This document shows, piece after piece, positions 22,942 through 27,914 of a stretch of DNA of 64,000 nucleotides (positions within the stretch are counted from its first letter, which is position 1; every line of letters begins with the position of its first letter). The notes beneath the pieces are model-generated. The model searched no databases. It saw only the letters and a program-made list of their open reading frames with translations, and was not told the origin of the DNA. The position numbers were made by a program, and so were the translations under genes. This stretch comes from Chitinophagales bacterium (GTDB taxonomy: Bacteria > Bacteroidota > Bacteroidia > Chitinophagales > CAIOSU01), in NCBI GenBank assembly GCA_026003335.1, contig BPHB01000003.1, forward strand, positions 129,013 to 193,012. Reading direction: 5' to 3'.

Positions 22942-23487
22942 TTAATCTTTTTTTTGCATTATCCACACGCGGTCTTGTCCATCTGTTTCTTTCCAGTCCA
23001 CTTTTACATATTCTGATTCAATGGCATCAATGGTTTTGCCCACATAGTTGGCCTGAATGGGCATGTGGCGGCTGAGGCGCCTGTCAATGAGTACCAACAG
23101 CTCCACGATAGATGGCCTGCCAAAGTCCAGCAGGGCATCAAAGGCTGCACGCACGGTACGGGCAGTGTATAGCACATCGTCTATGAGGACCACCTTTCTA
23201 CCCTCAATGGAAAAATCAATTATGGTGTCATTGGCCGTATGCACCTTTTCGCTTCTGCGAAAGTCATCACGGTAGAAAGTAATGTCCAGCACTCCATAAT
23301 AGAGGGGGTGGTTGCGGCTGATTTCCTTGAGGCGGCTGTTTATCCGCCTGGATAAATGGATGCCCCTGGGCTGAATGCCGATGAGTGCGGTGTCTGAAAA
23401 ATCTTTGTGGTTTTCAATAAGCTGATAGCACAAACGGTCAATGGTGAGCGCAAACTTCTTGCTGTCTAAAATTACCCTTGCCGGCAT
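22942..23487 (-). CDS. pyrR: bifunctional pyr regulator / uracil phosphoribosyltransferase PyrR
   Basis: 181 aa. PRPP-binding loop VVLIDDVLYTARTVRAA. Lies directly upstream of pyrB. Confidence 0.9.
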   Translation of the reverse strand: MPARVILDSKKFALTIDRLCYQLIENHKDFSDTALIGIQPRGIHLSRRINSRLKEISRNHPLYYGVLDITFYRDDFRRSEKVHTANDTIIDFSIEGRKVVLIDDVLYTARTVRAAFDALLDFGRPSIVELLVLIDRRLSRHMPIQANYVGKTIDAIESEYVKVDWKETDGQDRVWIMQKKD

Positions 23488-23581: not shown

Positions 23582-24784
23582 TTATGTTTCTGTAGCACAG
23601 ACTATACATTGTGGATCGCGGGATACTTTGGCGCCATACCAGCGCAGGATACCGGGTTGGGTAAAGCCATACCCCATCTTGGGCCATTGAGCATAAATAT
23701 TTTCTCTCCGGTTGGCCCAGATATAAAAATCAGCAGTAAGATCCTCTTCCAGACTCCGTATGCCGGTATCCATCCCTCTGGAAAGCTCTACCAGAGCCAG
23801 CTTGACCATCAGGTTGGCAATAGGAGCAATATCTGATGAGAGGCCTACCTGTACCAGGGCATGCCGATCCTCTTCACTGGTATAGGCCGGTAGCAGTTTT
23901 TTAGCCTGCTTCATCTGTGATATTTCTTCGTCATCGCTGCCTGCCTGCCGGATATTCTGTGAGTAAAGGCAATTGTAACACGGACCGGTGAAAGGTCTTA
24001 CCCGGAGCACATCGCCACCGGCAGCCCGGGTGAGGGCTCGTCCGTAGATGGCTGTAATTTTCAGGTTCAGCGATATATCATTAATCATAAAGCGGCTGCG
24101 GTCATTATCGGTGGCTGCTATAAGGAGGTCTGCCTGGCTGAGGTAGGGTAGGCATGCATCGCGGTGCTGTACAATGTCTTTTTCCAGCGCGATGACCGAG
24201 GCAAATGGGTTTTTCTGCAGCAACAGATCTTTTACTGCCCATGTTTTATATCGGCCCAGGTCTTGAATACCGCAGATGTGTCGGGCGATATTGGAAGCTT
24301 CCAGGCGGTCATAATCTATAAGGATAAATTTACCTATGCCGGCTTTTGCCAACTCCAGAGCAATAGCCGAACCTCCACTGCCCAGGCCAATAACAGCAAC
24401 CGTTTTTGCCGCCAGTGCATCCGTTTCCAGGAGGCCTTCGCTGCGTGCAGATAATGCTTTGCCGTTGCTGATAATTATTAATGTGCATTCGGTGATGGAT
24501 GCACCATTTTTATAAAAAGCTTTGCCGTTTAATTTTCCTTCGTTGTTACAGTAGTGAATAATAATAGCTTCTTTTTCGCTCTGTTCAGCCGGATTCATTG
24601 ACGATATGCCCGAATAAAGTAGACAGGTTAATGGTTTGCCGTATGGATTTGCAAGATGATCCGGATAGGCGTGGAATACCGTATTTTCATCCAGGGCAAA
24701 GGCTATGCCTATAAGCGGTTCAGGGGTTGTGTTTTCGACAAGTTCATTGGTATGCAGCAGAAAGAGATAAACGCAGGGAAGCAT
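23582..24784 (-). CDS. ThiF/MoeB/E1-like adenylyltransferase with about 125-aa N-terminal extension
   Basis: 400 aa. Nucleotide loop VAVIGLGSGGSAIALELAKAGIGKFILIDYDRLEASNIARH and the ATDNDRSR motif. Two CxxC pairs (C269/C272, C393/C396). Confidence 0.85.
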   Translation of the reverse strand: MLPCVYLFLLHTNELVENTTPEPLIGIAFALDENTVFHAYPDHLANPYGKPLTCLLYSGISSMNPAEQSEKEAIIIHYCNNEGKLNGKAFYKNGASITECTLIIISNGKALSARSEGLLETDALAAKTVAVIGLGSGGSAIALELAKAGIGKFILIDYDRLEASNIARHICGIQDLGRYKTWAVKDLLLQKNPFASVIALEKDIVQHRDACLPYLSQADLLIAATDNDRSRFMINDISLNLKITAIYGRALTRAAGGDVLRVRPFTGPCYNCLYSQNIRQAGSDDEEISQMKQAKKLLPAYTSEEDRHALVQVGLSSDIAPIANLMVKLALVELSRGMDTGIRSLEEDLTADFYIWANRRENIYAQWPKMGYGFTQPGILRWYGAKVSRDPQCIVCATET

Positions 24785-24792
24785 GTAAGGAG

Positions 24793-24978
24793 TTAGAAGA
24801 ATCCGTCTTTATAGATCTGGTCAACGATAATTTCATTGGGCTTTAGCGTTTCATCTTCAGCGGGTTTGATGATGAGCTCTCCTGTTGTGGGATCAAAGGT
24901 GAGCTTCTTCTGAGAAGAATCCGAGTTTTTCTTCGCCATTTCTTCGGCTACTTTTTTGGGGTCTGATTCCTTGGTCAT
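24793..24978 (-). CDS. 61-aa charged small protein of unknown function (candidate modifier or substrate of the E1/E2/JAB cassette)
   Basis: ATG-initiated ORF that exactly fills the E2-E1 gap (10 nt and 8 nt spacers). Sequence MTKESDPKKVAEEMAKKNSDSSQKKLTFDPTTGELIIKPAEDETLKPNEIIVDQIYKDGFF. Coding status is inferred from its placement. Confidence 0.55.
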   Translation of the reverse strand: MTKESDPKKVAEEMAKKNSDSSQKKLTFDPTTGELIIKPAEDETLKPNEIIVDQIYKDGFF

Positions 24979-25438: not shown

Positions 25439-26374
25439 TTAATCAAACAGTTTGAGACTTTGCATCAGCCGGCTTATGCGGCTTTTCCGCCTTTTCTCGG
25501 AGCGAAACACATTCAGCAGCTCCTGGAACCCCACCTTTTCTACCACATCCGGTTTGCTTTCGGGGAAGTTATGAGGGAAGCGTATTTCATAGCGTGCGCT
25601 ATCATGACTGAAGGAGATAGCAATGCGCTTATCGGCAAGCTGCAGCAGTTCCACATTCTGAAGGTCTTTGCGCTCCCTGAGTTTGTCAAATACCTCTCGC
25701 AGATAGCGCTGTCCTTCGGCTTTAGTCCAGAAAGAATCTGCGGGAAGATCCGGCTTTCCCGGATTTTTAAGGATCGTTTCAGGGGGCATTTGCTCAGGTG
25801 CAACTAAACTGCAGGACACCTGATCTGCAGCGGTATGGGGATGACGAAAATGTTTTTCCATGTCCGAAGGAAGGCTTTGCCTGACAGGACTGGTTCCTTC
25901 CAGTACCTGCCAGCTGCAGCGGTGATGCCGGTCAAGATTATCGCGCAAGAAAAGGAATGCCCCTAGTGAAACCTCTGCCTGCTCATCCATATTGACAATG
26001 CAGATAACAAAACGGGAAAATCCCGTGCCGCGCAGAGCATTTCTCATGGTGAGGATATCCCCAGGACTCGGTTCATTAAAACGCAAGTGGTGGTGGGAGT
26101 GCCAGGCTCCGATATGTTCCAGTCCATGGGCATGATGCAGCAGTGCACCCCACTGGTGCAGATAACCTATGTCCTGATTAAAATGAGCCCGCCCATGGAT
26201 GGCCTTTTGTCCAGGACCGATGGCAAACTCTACCACCGGAAATCCCTCCTTAGTCCACAAACCGAACAGATCGCCTCCGGTCTCGGCTTCAGGAAAGTCT
26301 ATTACATAACGACTGATATACTGCAATTCACTCTCATAAATAAATATTTTTCCTAATTGTATAGGGTCATGCAT
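25439..26374 (-). CDS. JAB/MPN+ (JAMM) metalloprotease with C-terminal extension
   Basis: 311 aa. Catalytic Glu context PEAETGGDLFG and JAMM motif WHSHHHLRFNEPSPGD. Its stop is 3 nt from the E2 start (TAAatcATG). Confidence 0.8.
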   Translation of the reverse strand: MHDPIQLGKIFIYESELQYISRYVIDFPEAETGGDLFGLWTKEGFPVVEFAIGPGQKAIHGRAHFNQDIGYLHQWGALLHHAHGLEHIGAWHSHHHLRFNEPSPGDILTMRNALRGTGFSRFVICIVNMDEQAEVSLGAFLFLRDNLDRHHRCSWQVLEGTSPVRQSLPSDMEKHFRHPHTAADQVSCSLVAPEQMPPETILKNPGKPDLPADSFWTKAEGQRYLREVFDKLRERKDLQNVELLQLADKRIAISFSHDSARYEIRFPHNFPESKPDVVEKVGFQELLNVFRSEKRRKSRISRLMQSLKLFD

Positions 26375-26498: not shown

Positions 26499-27914
26499 TT
26501 AATGCCGTATGTGACGGATAAAGATATCTTTCAGCTCGCTGGCTGAATATTTCCGGCTGTAATCCAGAATCGTTTCCGGGTTGCTGTCCAAAAGGATACG
26601 AAAAAAGTCTTCGTGTAAAGCATCATCCATGAGCTGTTCCGTTTCACGGATACGCTGAAAGGTGAGCTTTTTATCCTGGTCGCGGTCTTGCAGGTAGGCT
26701 GCAATTTTACTGAGCGCCTTTTGTTTGGTAGAATCCTCATCCCGGATGATGATGGCATCTTGTTGCTGCTCCCGTTCACGCGCCTGAAGCAGCCAGGTTT
26801 TTATTTGCTGGTGCACGAGGTTATTGTATGTTGTGATATTGTAATTGTAAATAGCCTTATCTCCGCCAGAAAAAGCATCCAGCGGAGCTTCAGCCAGCGA
26901 AGTATATATTTCCTGCAATTTGCTGGCGGGCAAACTCCAAAGGGCTTGTTCGGCAGGTTTTACAATGGTATTAAACCAGATATGGATATTGTAGCGATTC
27001 ACGAAATTCACAAACAGGGGCATCTCTTGCCAGTTTTGGCGAAGGGGATTGACCATAATGCATAATGTGCGCTGATGGTCTTTGCAATAGCGCAGGAAGA
27101 ATTGGAAATTCTGCATCAGCTTTTCAAAACTGCCGTTTATCCGTATGCGTTCATAGGTTCGTGCCGTGGCCCCATCCATGGAAATATTAAAATGAAAATT
27201 TCCTCTGGAGAGGTATTCTTTTACTTTATCGTTAAGCACGGTGCCGTTGGTGGCAATTACCATTTTAAGATCGGGATTGAGTTCAAAAACCATATCCCAT
27301 ATTTTATAGTAGAGCTTGATCAGAAAAGGCTCTCCACCATTGAAACGCGCTTCGTGCAGATGAGGAATAAACTCCCGCAGCTCGTTTAAAAATTTGTCCC
27401 CGTATGGCGATTTGAGCGGAGGAAGCTTCTCCCGGTCACGTCTGATAACGGAGCTGAGCATACCGTTGCACATGGTGCAGGCGAGATTGCAGGTGTTGCT
27501 CAGTTCAAACTCAATGATGGAGGGATAGTCCGTTTTCGGAAAATCATTATCATATGCTTTAGCCAAAATGTTGGTGAAGTTATTTTCAAGCAGATGATTC
27601 CGGCAGGTCTGGCAGCCATACTCCAACTGATGGTTTTTTATGCCTTCACGAATGCGATTAAAGTTGGGACTGTTCCAGATTTCTTTGATAGACTTATTTT
27701 CAGTATACTTCTCTGCACGATGAAAGGTTTGCCAGCAGAGGGCTACATCACCCTCTGTGTTGAAATACAGGTTGGAGAAAGGAGCGTGACAGAGCAAACG
27801 GGTGTCGCGAACGATACGGGTTTGATTATAGCGGGCAATTTTTTTGTCCAATGAGGAACGATAACGCGGCACAAAAGGATTAAGCCGGCCTAATATTGCT
27901 TTGATGCGGGACAT
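26499..27914 (-). CDS. radical SAM protein with N-terminal SPASM/twitch-like Cys motif
   Basis: 471 aa. Radical SAM triad C142-NLA-C146-TM-C149 (ELSNTCNLACTMCNG), and GGEPFL. Upstream of it are C42-x12-G-x4-C60 and C101-QT-C104. Confidence 0.8.
   Translation of the reverse strand: MSRIKAILGRLNPFVPRYRSSLDKKIARYNQTRIVRDTRLLCHAPFSNLYFNTEGDVALCWQTFHRAEKYTENKSIKEIWNSPNFNRIREGIKNHQLEYGCQTCRNHLLENNFTNILAKAYDNDFPKTDYPSIIEFELSNTCNLACTMCNGMLSSVIRRDREKLPPLKSPYGDKFLNELREFIPHLHEARFNGGEPFLIKLYYKIWDMVFELNPDLKMVIATNGTVLNDKVKEYLSRGNFHFNISMDGATARTYERIRINGSFEKLMQNFQFFLRYCKDHQRTLCIMVNPLRQNWQEMPLFVNFVNRYNIHIWFNTIVKPAEQALWSLPASKLQEIYTSLAEAPLDAFSGGDKAIYNYNITTYNNLVHQQIKTWLLQAREREQQQDAIIIRDEDSTKQKALSKIAAYLQDRDQDKKLTFQRIRETEQLMDDALHEDFFRILLDSNPETILDYSRKYSASELKDIFIRHIRH

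Follow-up and report, generated by a model that had tools for sequence, protein, structure and literature searches.

Organization of the locus

The DNA analysed here, hereafter the window, is a 64,000-nucleotide stretch of contig BPHB01000003.1 from a Chitinophagales bacterium. On its minus strand lies a small gene, termed S, which occupies the gap between the genes of an E2-like conjugating enzyme and an E1-like adenylating enzyme and is preceded by the gene of a JAB/JAMM metalloprotease. The analysis suggests that S is rather probably the dedicated small modifier of a widespread, undescribed four-gene ubiquitin-like conjugation cassette. The accompanying enzymes are viewed as a “split Cap2”, comprising a separate E2 and a wing/adenylation E1, together with a JAB protease of Cap3-like type, to which an inactive E2-like domain is added. 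The features of the cassette are as follows.

24793..24978 (stop codon included), minus strand: gene S, small protein, candidate modifier; based on the open reading frame (ORF) and its translation, homologues, purifying selection and position upstream of E1
24865..24903, minus strand: S codons 26-38, LTFDPTTGELIIK, β-hairpin motif LxFDPxTGELxV, proposed docking element; based on conservation, predicted strands and recurrence in other operon proteins
24796..24810, minus strand, with TAA (24793-24795) directly after: S codons 57-61, KDGFF, C-terminal G-Phi-Phi, proposed E1 activation site; based on conservation, tail counts and covariation with E1 residue 137
23582..24784, minus strand: E1-like adenylating enzyme, 400 aa; based on Pfam ThiF, PADLOC CBASS E1-E2 and Foldseek Cap2 matches
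24368..24388, minus strand: E1 codons 133-139, GLGSGGS, glycine-rich nucleotide loop in which residue 137 is Gly; based on covariation with the last S residue
24989..25435, minus strand: E2-like conjugating enzyme, 148 aa, with Cys103 (codon 25127-25129) and His91; based on PADLOC E2 (2.7e-5) and conservation
25895..26374, minus strand: JAB/JAMM metalloprotease domain, aa 1-160 of a 311-aa protein, with E31, H92-S-H94, S103 and D106 intact; based on PADLOC JAB, Pfam Prok-JAB and conservation
25442..25789, minus strand: C-terminal domain of the JAB protein, aa 196-311, Cys-less and E2-like (UEV/RWD-like), with an fPxxfP motif; based on hhalign comparison with the operon E2 family and presence in 74 homologues

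S starts with ATG and extends over 61 codons plus TAA (24978..24793, minus strand), with the translation MTKESDPKKVAEEMAKKNSDSSQKKLTFDPTTGELIIKPAEDETLKPNEIIVDQIYKDGFF. The protein contains 10 Lys and no Cys, and Gly59 is followed by Phe60-Phe61 as the last two residues. ORF and translation thus confirm the description given in the first-pass annotation, which was a 61-residue, minus-strand ORF in the E2-E1 gap with 10 Lys, no Cys and a KDGFF end. All four genes share the minus strand in the order JAB (with the inactive E2-like domain)-E2-S-E1 and are closely spaced. The JAB gene (26374..25439, 311 aa) ends 3 nt before the E2 gene, 10 nt separate the E2 stop from the S start, and 8 nt separate the end of S from the E1 start. 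According to a Pfam scan, the cassette is flanked by a radical-SAM/SPASM gene upstream and by pyrR (23487..22942) after E1, and it includes no additional partner gene. An identical S sequence is deposited as a hypothetical protein from a Chitinophagales metagenome-assembled genome (MAG). A scan of the operon for sigma-70 promoters and terminators gave promoter counts not clearly above those of shuffled sequences, the method being ill-suited to Bacteroidota.

S is a conserved gene under purifying selection

A word-indexed protein search identified 62 homologues of S with 57-100% identity, nearly all of which are 60-70 aa long. A full hidden Markov model (HMM) search of 1.84 billion representatives with the S profile returned 134 matches at E<=1e-3, about 115 of which are small (48-250 aa) and match over the full length of the profile. 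Among 13 homologues compared as DNA, the nonsynonymous p-distance is ~0.19 and synonymous sites are saturated, with a median ratio of nonsynonymous to synonymous differences (pN/pS) of 0.21; codon columns vary at the third position in 60 of 60 and at the second position in 21. S is a real gene under purifying selection, which is the outcome of the dN/dS comparison that the first-pass annotation had proposed. Its expectation that the C-terminal Gly is kept in relatives was likewise borne out, as Gly59 is the sole invariant residue in an alignment of 66 diverse sequences (26-66% identity), in which F28, G33, L35 and F60 are conserved at 90% or above. Neither Pfam, PADLOC 2.0 nor NCBIfam release 20 contains a model for S.

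Synteny and distribution of the cassette

One genome per species was searched with an alignment of E1 homologues, yielding 80 loci which, with seven metagenomic loci and the window, constitute a set of 88 loci that was scanned with HMMs. They originate from Bacteroidota, Caldisericota (Cryosericum), Cyanobacteria, Actinobacteria, Verrucomicrobia, Myxococcota, Chloroflexi and gut Muribaculaceae/Segatella. The great majority display the order JAB, JAB C-terminal domain, E2, S, E1 on a single strand, and clustering of all neighbouring ORFs revealed that the JAB protein, E2, S and E1 are the only genes common to the 88 loci. A homologous small ORF or fused domain lies directly upstream of E1 in 83 of the 84 loci having upstream DNA, across at least eight phyla, as anticipated if a small ORF is conserved at this place in homologous loci. 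This figure results from the case-by-case resolution of ten loci with no initial S match. Four of them have a contig start inside or right at E1 and are not informative, three are in-frame S-E1 fusions, two carry in the gap a divergent small ORF ending ...DVFYSRAV or ...KAVWY, and the last consists of an E1 alone on an Acaryochloris plasmid.

Three actinobacterial loci are rearranged to S-E1-JAB-E2, and the Lujinxingia locus, which has an S-E1 fusion, starts S-E1-JAB before the contig ends. Since S remains immediately before E1 in these loci, the S-E1 adjacency is kept when the operon is rearranged. The comparative data support a functional tie between S and the adjacent E1, E2 and JAB. The E1 family includes at least 1,369 database proteins at E<=1e-20, and cultured carriers comprise Flavobacterium spp., Segatella copri, Anabaena, Spirulina, Actinoplanes and Nocardia; with the family present in cultured strains, the prediction is directly testable. 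A phage and plasmid search revealed no phage carrying E1 and only three plasmids, one of them with a lone E1. The latter is the conjugative plasmid pREB3 of Acaryochloris marina (L088:4097-6275), where E1 occurs without S, E2 or JAB, adjoined by a HEAT-repeat protein, and may represent a remnant or a different arrangement.

The E1, E2 and JAB enzymes

The E1 matches Pfam ThiF (3.2e-33) and the E1-E2 models of PADLOC for the antiphage signalling system based on cyclic oligonucleotides (CBASS), down to 1.8e-36. It comprises an N-terminal domain (aa 1-118), modelled at a predicted local distance difference test (pLDDT) score above 90, followed by a ThiF-type adenylation domain with two CxxC zinc motifs, C269/C272 and C393/C396. 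The adenylation motifs and both zinc motifs are invariant in a 38-sequence E1 alignment. By sequence, the closest relatives in the PDB are ThiF, MoeB and MccB, and then Cap2 (E values of 2.8e-10 for MccB, 1.7e-7 for PaaA and 1.3e-4 for BubCD). A structural similarity search with the predicted E1 using Foldseek placed Cap2 first (7to3_A; E 5e-17), followed by BubCD, UBA5, ThiF and Atg7. Together with the JAB match described below (1e-12), the PADLOC and Foldseek results identify a Cap2-type E1 adenylation domain accompanied by a Cap3-type JAB.

Cap2 consists of an E2 domain, a “wing” resembling the N-terminal domain of Atg7 and an adenylation domain, which guides the tail of a CD-NTase, a substrate that is not ubiquitin-like (Ubl), into the active site (PMC12355090). 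From the Foldseek matches to Cap2 and Atg7 and this description, the N-terminal domain of the window E1 is probably a Cap2/Atg7-type wing; hhalign comparison of this domain with JAB or E2 gave probabilities below 1%. The Cap2 architecture and the Foldseek matches suggest that the window E1 corresponds to wing plus adenylation domain, with the E2 split off as a separate gene.

At residues 269-293 of E1 (window 23906-23980, minus strand), an invariant E286-E287-x-S289-Q is found where ThiF and Cap2 carry their catalytic Cys. This element may reflect direct transfer from the adenylate to E2, or a Ser oxyester as in Bub. E1s of cyanobacterial and related clades end in an S-like tail (...NDGFFG, ...DDNFFG, ...DNIFG, ...NIFA or ...NIFSS; proteins P0312, P0314, P0309, P0272, P0296, P0311 and P0315), which could be a pseudo-substrate or a self-conjugation site.

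The E2 matches PADLOC E2 (2.7e-5) and presents Cys103 and His91 in 97% of 85 homologues; it has no Pfam match, and no model of PADLOC 2.0, Pfam or NCBIfam release 20 scores above threshold. The JAB domain matches PADLOC JAB (down to 1e-12) and Pfam Prok-JAB (7e-4), and its residues E31, H92-S-H94, S103 and D106 are present in 100% of 77 homologues. Its C-terminal extension aligns with the E2 family of the operon itself (hhalign probability 90.5%, E 1.3e-6, E2 residues 4-67). The alignment covers the N-terminal half of E2 and leaves out the Cys region, and the extension is thus taken to be an inactive UEV/RWD-like domain. With their catalytic residues intact, the enzymes look active.

Anatomy of S

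S may be divided into three parts: a charged and variable N-terminal region of 0 to ~100 aa, helical by prediction in the window copy; the hairpin LxFDPxTGELxV; and, after a variable loop, the strand and tail VVDQIYKDGFF. The conserved core spans ~38 aa. The AlphaFold2 (AF2) model, calculated from a 39-sequence alignment, comprises a helix (residues 7-19) and three strands (residues 24-29, 34-39 and 50-55), with a mean pLDDT of 62. The short β-strands that the first-pass annotation had guessed behind the charged start are therefore roughly reproduced, by a model of low confidence. Its statement that S is too short for a β-grasp agrees with the ~38-aa core, the α-β-β-β order and the lack of β-grasp matches. 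A β-grasp fold (β-β-α-β-β) was considered for S and set aside in view of the α-β-β-β order of the AF2 model, itself of low confidence. The best match of the S profile to PDB sequences was non-significant (E 0.57), and Foldseek with the S model gave a best E of 1.5 and no β-grasp match. On S, Pfam revealed only a sub-threshold RibLong match (E 9.8e-4, 20 bits vs a cutoff of 27), which probably stems from the FDPxTGE hairpin. S is probably disordered on its own.

The hairpin motif recurs (VFNPQTGEF, LVYNETTGNF, LIFDPETGEL, KYNDRTGEF) at the extreme N-termini of proteins encoded just downstream of E1, all outside the window (L056:8260-9045, L066:6313-7323, L060:1707-2639 and L071:7954-8691). These are Ig-like proteins of 261 and 336 aa, a HEAT-repeat protein and a DnaJ-zinc-finger membrane protein. 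When the ORFs of 150 aa or more in all loci (886) were scanned with a hairpin regular expression, the matches were confined to S fusions and three of the four protein groups; the L071 protein escaped the expression and was spotted by eye. The hairpin may be a shared docking peptide. FDPxTGE-type motifs also occur as 3-14 tandem copies in unrelated-looking proteins, some longer than 3,000 aa, which match the S profile in the hairpin part only (P0125, P0161, P0162, P0170, P0174 and P0064-P0068).

C-terminal boundary, tails and fusions

The C-terminal motif of the S family is DGFF in 120 members, DGFA in 9, EGFF in 9 and TGFF in 5, with rare GYF, GWA, GFM and GFL variants, and position 61 is restricted to F, A, M, L or Y. 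Conservation ends abruptly after G-[FWY]-[FA]. The residues past the motif number 0 in 18 proteins, 1 in 34, 2 in 13, 3 in 22 and 4 in 21, and a few tails are longer, up to 20 residues. None of the ~150 family members ends at G or G+1. Exact GFF or GFA ends are found in many genomic copies, including the window copy and most copies of gut Bacteroidales.

In-frame S-E1 fusions occur in several cyanobacteria (Spirulina subsalsa P0314, L035-L038), Segatella copri, Lujinxingia and Bacteroidales UBA MAGs, and an S-JAB fusion was identified in P0124. S is always N-terminal in these fusions, and the partner starts 3-8 residues past G-Phi-Phi. In the polyubiquitin-like tandem S-S proteins P0096/L078, L069 and P0181, each copy ends in GFA or GFF. 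The sharp boundary, variable tails, head-to-tail repeats and N-terminal fusions to enzymes read as the signature of a C-terminally processed modifier. The same combination of boundary, variable tails, repeats and enzyme fusions characterizes ubiquitin-family precursors and BubAB; in the latter, the modifier is made as a fusion from which the peptidase releases it, the Bub JAB domain cutting after Gly (PMC11601596).

Some genomes hold two S units. Cuspidothrix and Nostoc have both a free S and an S-E1 fusion (L036:6341-8209, L038:6395-8209), whereas Chloroherpetonaceae and Bacteroidales have a tandem S-S gene (L078:6080-6829, L069:6612-6935). In one subfamily the tails past GFF end in Ala-Ala (...GFFAKAA, ...GFFCNEKIAA, ...GFFARKAA; P0069, P0074, P0084, P0094, P0100, P0102, P0104, P0138, P0144 and P0145), resembling ssrA-type degradation tags, and unprocessed S precursors may be degraded by this route. 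An S-like gene (L092:1613-1819; P0179, ending ...EDGFMYN) was also found on a short contig (3.2 kb) made up of small genes, among them that of a DnaQ-like exonuclease, and lacking E1, E2 and JAB. This contig might derive from a phage, and the gene might be a modifier mimic or decoy.

The residue presented to E1: Phe61 or Gly59

The last motif residue of S covaries with residue 137 of E1, the fifth position of the GxGxxG loop (G133-L-G-S-x137-G-S). Where S ends in GFF or GYF, residue 137 is Gly in 51 of 51 loci, and Gly is also found in 117 of the 119 database E1s with a readable loop motif. Where S ends in GFA, residue 137 is Phe in 27 of 27 loci, which belong to one clade, and in the S-E1 fusion P0130. 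In a second lineage, Val137 of E1 P0272 pairs with GWA and Ile137 of E1 P0308 with GFA. A neighbour-joining tree of E1 groups the 28 Phe137 enzymes in one clade and places the Val/Ile pair as a second, independent origin inside the Gly137 enzymes. For the GFM/GFL variants, the sole contig found (L092) lacks an E1 and looks phage-like. The sizes are reciprocal, a large last residue of S meeting Gly on E1 and a small one meeting a bulky E1 residue; direct packing contact beside the ATP phosphates would produce such a pattern. The covariation is suggestive of residue 61 as the residue presented for adenylation.

Previous knowledge would designate Gly59 as the reactive residue, since Cap2 depends on Gly or Ala as the last substrate residue and conjugation is lost with Ser, Val, Arg or Trp in that place (Jenson et al., PMC10097602). 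The first-pass annotation had accordingly regarded Phe60-Phe61 as a two-residue propeptide trimmed to Gly59, a proposal that fares poorly with no family member ending at G or G+1, conservation extending through residue 61, and the covariation. The corresponding model treats S as an obligate precursor that JAB cleaves at the Gly59-Phe60 bond; the Phe-Phe pair would serve for recognition or as a “safety cap”, and Gly59 would be the residue activated by E1, in the manner of ubiquitin, Atg8 and CD-NTases. This model is kept as a rival because Gly59 is the single invariant residue, and is judged unlikely, although not negligibly so. It agrees with the activity of known E1s and JAMM enzymes on Gly/Ala and with the loss of Cap2 activity upon bulky substitution (PMC10097602). 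Obligatory maturation would also explain why no complete cassette lacks JAB, including those in which S has an exact GFF end.

Several features of the family are difficult to accommodate in the Gly59 model. F60 is conserved at 90% or above and position 61 is restricted, whereas conservation is not usual at the P' positions of Ubl precursors. Tails never comprise fewer than two residues after Gly, the distribution starting at G+2. In the two divergent gap ORFs, Val replaces Gly but the aromatic pair is retained (DVFY, AVWY). Covariation of residue 61 with the ATP loop is hard to explain if that residue is removed before E1 binding. In addition, the GFA clades end in Ala, the last residue of some CD-NTases, which is accepted by Cap2-type E1s (PMC10097602). 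The start of the tails at G+2 with conservation through residue 61, the aromatic pair of the gap ORFs and the covariation with the ATP loop argue for Phe61, which appears the likelier activated residue of the two. If Phe61 is activated, the window S would need no trimming and the JAB there would mainly deconjugate.

Proposed mechanism and alternative explanations

The reading of S as an atypical modifier, one of those offered by the first-pass annotation, emerges as the best one given the synteny across phyla, adjacency to E1, fusions, tandem genes, and the sharp boundary with variable tails. Most likely, the cassette is a bacterial E1/E2/JAB conjugation system whose modifier is of a new type. 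We infer its chemical steps, cleavage site and targets from sequence. Where S is tailed, tandem or fused to E1 or JAB, the JAB would cut just past G-Phi-Phi; the window copy would need no cut. The hairpin LxFDPxTGELxV would dock S on the enzyme complex, and the C-terminal strand and tail would thread into the E1 adenylation site, with the side chain of Phe61 packing against loop position 137. E1 would then adenylate the C-terminal carboxylate of S, which would be passed to Cys103 of E2 as a thioester. Transfer to E2 may be direct or proceed via another nucleophile, since E1 is without a conserved catalytic Cys. From E2, S would be moved to amino groups of targets, and JAB would also reverse the conjugation.

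A more specific formulation is advanced tentatively. S would be a ~40-residue module which is not a β-grasp and folds on binding, its C-terminal aromatic residue or Ala being adenylated by a Cap2/Atg7-type E1, conjugated by a Cys-E2, and matured and removed by a JAMM enzyme. It would define a new class of tag in more than 1,000 operons of at least eight phyla, including human-gut Bacteroidales, where the cassette is coupled to a ClpB-like unfoldase, possibly for tag-and-unfold or defence, as an analogue of ubiquitin and Pup that is independent of both. Recent work has established bacterial pathways of the E1/E2/JAB kind (CBASS type II, Bil and Bub) as true systems of protein conjugation, and the moiety that each of them conjugates is a β-grasp Ubl or the Gly/Ala tail of an enzyme. 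If the proposed reading holds, E1-E2 machinery does not need the ubiquitin fold. The specificity chemistry of E1 and JAMM enzymes would be wider, extending to a large C-terminal residue accommodated by a “hole” in the ATP loop, and S would provide a minimal, engineerable conjugation tag.

Some observations weigh against the proposed modifier and its activation at Phe61. The AF2 confidence is low both for S alone (pLDDT 62) and within the natural S-E1 fusion P0314 (pLDDT 52-71). A conserved catalytic Cys was not found in the E1 crossover region of the 38-sequence alignment. The covariation amounts to only two independent evolutionary events, and the invariance of Gly59 alone in the 66-sequence alignment fits cleavage after this residue equally well. 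The protein-conjugating E1s and JAMM deconjugases that have been characterised work on a terminal Gly, Cap2 also on Ala, and a Phe in that position would be unprecedented. As regards function, the argument for defence comes solely from gene neighbours elsewhere than in the window, whose cassette is located between a radical-SAM gene and pyrR.

Alternatively, S might remain unconjugated and act as a non-covalent subunit or regulator, either a pseudo-substrate plugging E1 or JAB with its GFF tail or an adaptor, the true substrate being the C-terminus of another protein as in CBASS. Tight operon linkage and fusions to E1 and JAB are also expected of a stoichiometric subunit, the S-like tails of some cyanobacterial-clade E1s (...DGFFG, ...NIFA) suggest an intramolecular ligand, the hairpin at the N-termini of other operon proteins is what a docking peptide would display, and an inhibitor occupying the site would also covary with the ATP loop. 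This explanation is nevertheless improbable: the boundary after G-Phi-Phi, the variable tails and the tandem S-S proteins follow the pattern of a processed modifier, the 88 loci share no alternative candidate substrate, and the window cassette is without an additional partner gene.

The suggestion that S is the precursor of a ribosomally synthesised and post-translationally modified peptide (RiPP), with the ThiF-type enzyme converting its C-terminus into a secreted small molecule (an MccB-like peptidyl-nucleotide or a PaaA-like cyclisation product), draws on the short, probably disordered S and on MccB (E 2.8e-10) and PaaA (1.7e-7), which share an extra N-terminal domain with E1, but is very improbable, as the C-terminal Asn needed for MccB chemistry is absent from the conserved end of ~150 members, a Cys-active E2 and a JAB, which have no known role in Mcc/Paa pathways, are always present, transporter, immunity (export/immunity) and tailoring genes are not conserved in the 88-locus clustering, E1 is structurally closest to Cap2 with the MccB alignment covering the adenylation domain only, and the ~38-aa core with its long variable N-terminal region is unlike MccA peptides (7-42 aa).

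Comparison with known systems

The cassette is comparable to Cap2/Cap3 but falls outside CBASS, Bil, Bub, microcin C and Pup systems. It resembles type II CBASS in its Cap2-like E1 with a domain before the adenylation domain, an E2 with a catalytic Cys, a JAB partner, and a substrate that is not a β-grasp and would feed a flexible C-terminal tail into E1. In CBASS Cap2, however, E2 and E1 are fused, while here they are separate genes with S between them, both in the window and in nearly all loci. Further differences are the extra inactive E2-like domain of the JAB protein, the dedicated ~60-aa substrate with a Gly-Phe-Phe end in contrast with the Gly/Ala tails of Cap2 substrates, and an E1 without an equivalent of Cap2 C513. 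No CD-NTase or cyclic-nucleotide effector accompanies the window cassette, and the 88 loci share no family besides JAB, E2, S and E1. The unfused E2 and the lack of a CD-NTase or effector thus set the cassette apart from CBASS.

With Bil and Bub the cassette shares four components (modifier, E2, JAB-type peptidase and E1), a likely defence context and the existence of tandem-domain modifiers. Their modifiers, however, comprise 1-3 β-grasp domains with a Gly end, and S has no detectable β-grasp. The Bil E1 is a multidomain IAD-AAD-CYS protein (PMC11601596), in contrast with the 400-aa E1 described here, which presents a single adenylation domain, no conserved catalytic Cys and no PDB sequence match to the Bil E1. 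Bub relies on Ser/Tyr oxyesters (E2 Ser, E1 Tyr) and a DUF6527 protease, whereas the E2 described here carries Cys (97%) and a Pfam scan of six window and nine neighbour proteins revealed no DUF6527. By sequence, BubCD is no more than a distant match to the E1 (1.3e-4).

S resembles Pup/UBact as a ~60-aa tag that is probably disordered alone and would fold on its enzymes, and the ClpB-like AAA+ unfoldase linked to the cassette in some clades recalls Pup-Mpa. Pup is ligated via the side chain of its C-terminal Glu by the glutamine-synthetase-like PafA and is not known to involve an E1, E2 or JAB. S, in contrast, is encoded with E1, E2 and JAB and ends in GFF, and none of the S family members has a GGQ/GGE end. 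The comparison with Pup-like tags made in the first-pass annotation therefore holds for size and probable disorder and breaks down for the enzymes and the C-terminus.

The likeness to Atg8/LC3 includes a non-canonical Atg7/Cap2-type E1 with a wing-like N-domain, a short and variable C-terminal extension, and an aromatic residue next to a conserved Gly. Atg8 differs in being a β-grasp with the order Phe-Gly, its Gly becoming last after the action of a Cys protease, while S displays Gly-Phe-Phe and is paired with a JAMM metalloenzyme. As in MccA/MccB and PaaP/PaaA, a short gene-encoded peptide stands beside a ThiF-family enzyme with an extra N-terminal domain. The cassette differs from both in having no terminal Asn, E2 and JAB present, no export or immunity genes, and an E1 closer to Cap2. 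In full-text literature searches and in the key Bil, Bub, CBASS and Aravind papers, no description of the cassette or of a GFF-ending modifier was found; a prior mention is possible.

Genomic context and partner modules

The cassette is associated with different neighbours in different clades. In nine loci from several phyla, E1 is directly followed by a PtuA-like AAA_15/AAA_21 ATPase (~463 aa) and a 187-aa protein that matches PtuB (HNH) weakly. Examples of this Septu-like pair are L001:7447-9391, L004:7437-9384 and L005:9450-11382; the pair is absent after the window E1. L001 has additional neighbours with ThsB-TIR and RadC domains. In gut Muribaculaceae/Bacteroidales (L066:3737-8831, L064:8246-13355), a ClpB-like double AAA+ protein (856 aa), the Ig-like 336-aa protein and a DUF4407 membrane protein are tightly packed on the same strand. 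Segatella copri (L071) carries the DnaJ-zinc-finger membrane protein and a TPR-CHAT protease, and cyanobacterial loci a divergently transcribed STAND ATPase. Clade-specific partner modules are typical of defence and conflict systems, and from this modularity of the neighbours the cassette probably has such a role. The partner modules (Septu-like PtuAB, ClpB-like AAA+, DUF4407, CHAT and STAND) point to a defence/conflict function not yet included in PADLOC or NCBIfam.

The radical-SAM gene that adjoins the window cassette upstream (26499-27914, minus strand) is a neighbour not kept in other loci. It encodes a 471-aa protein with weak matches to viperin models, in which a SPASM-type Fe-S domain (aa 42-104) is located N-terminal to the radical-SAM core (aa 137-304).

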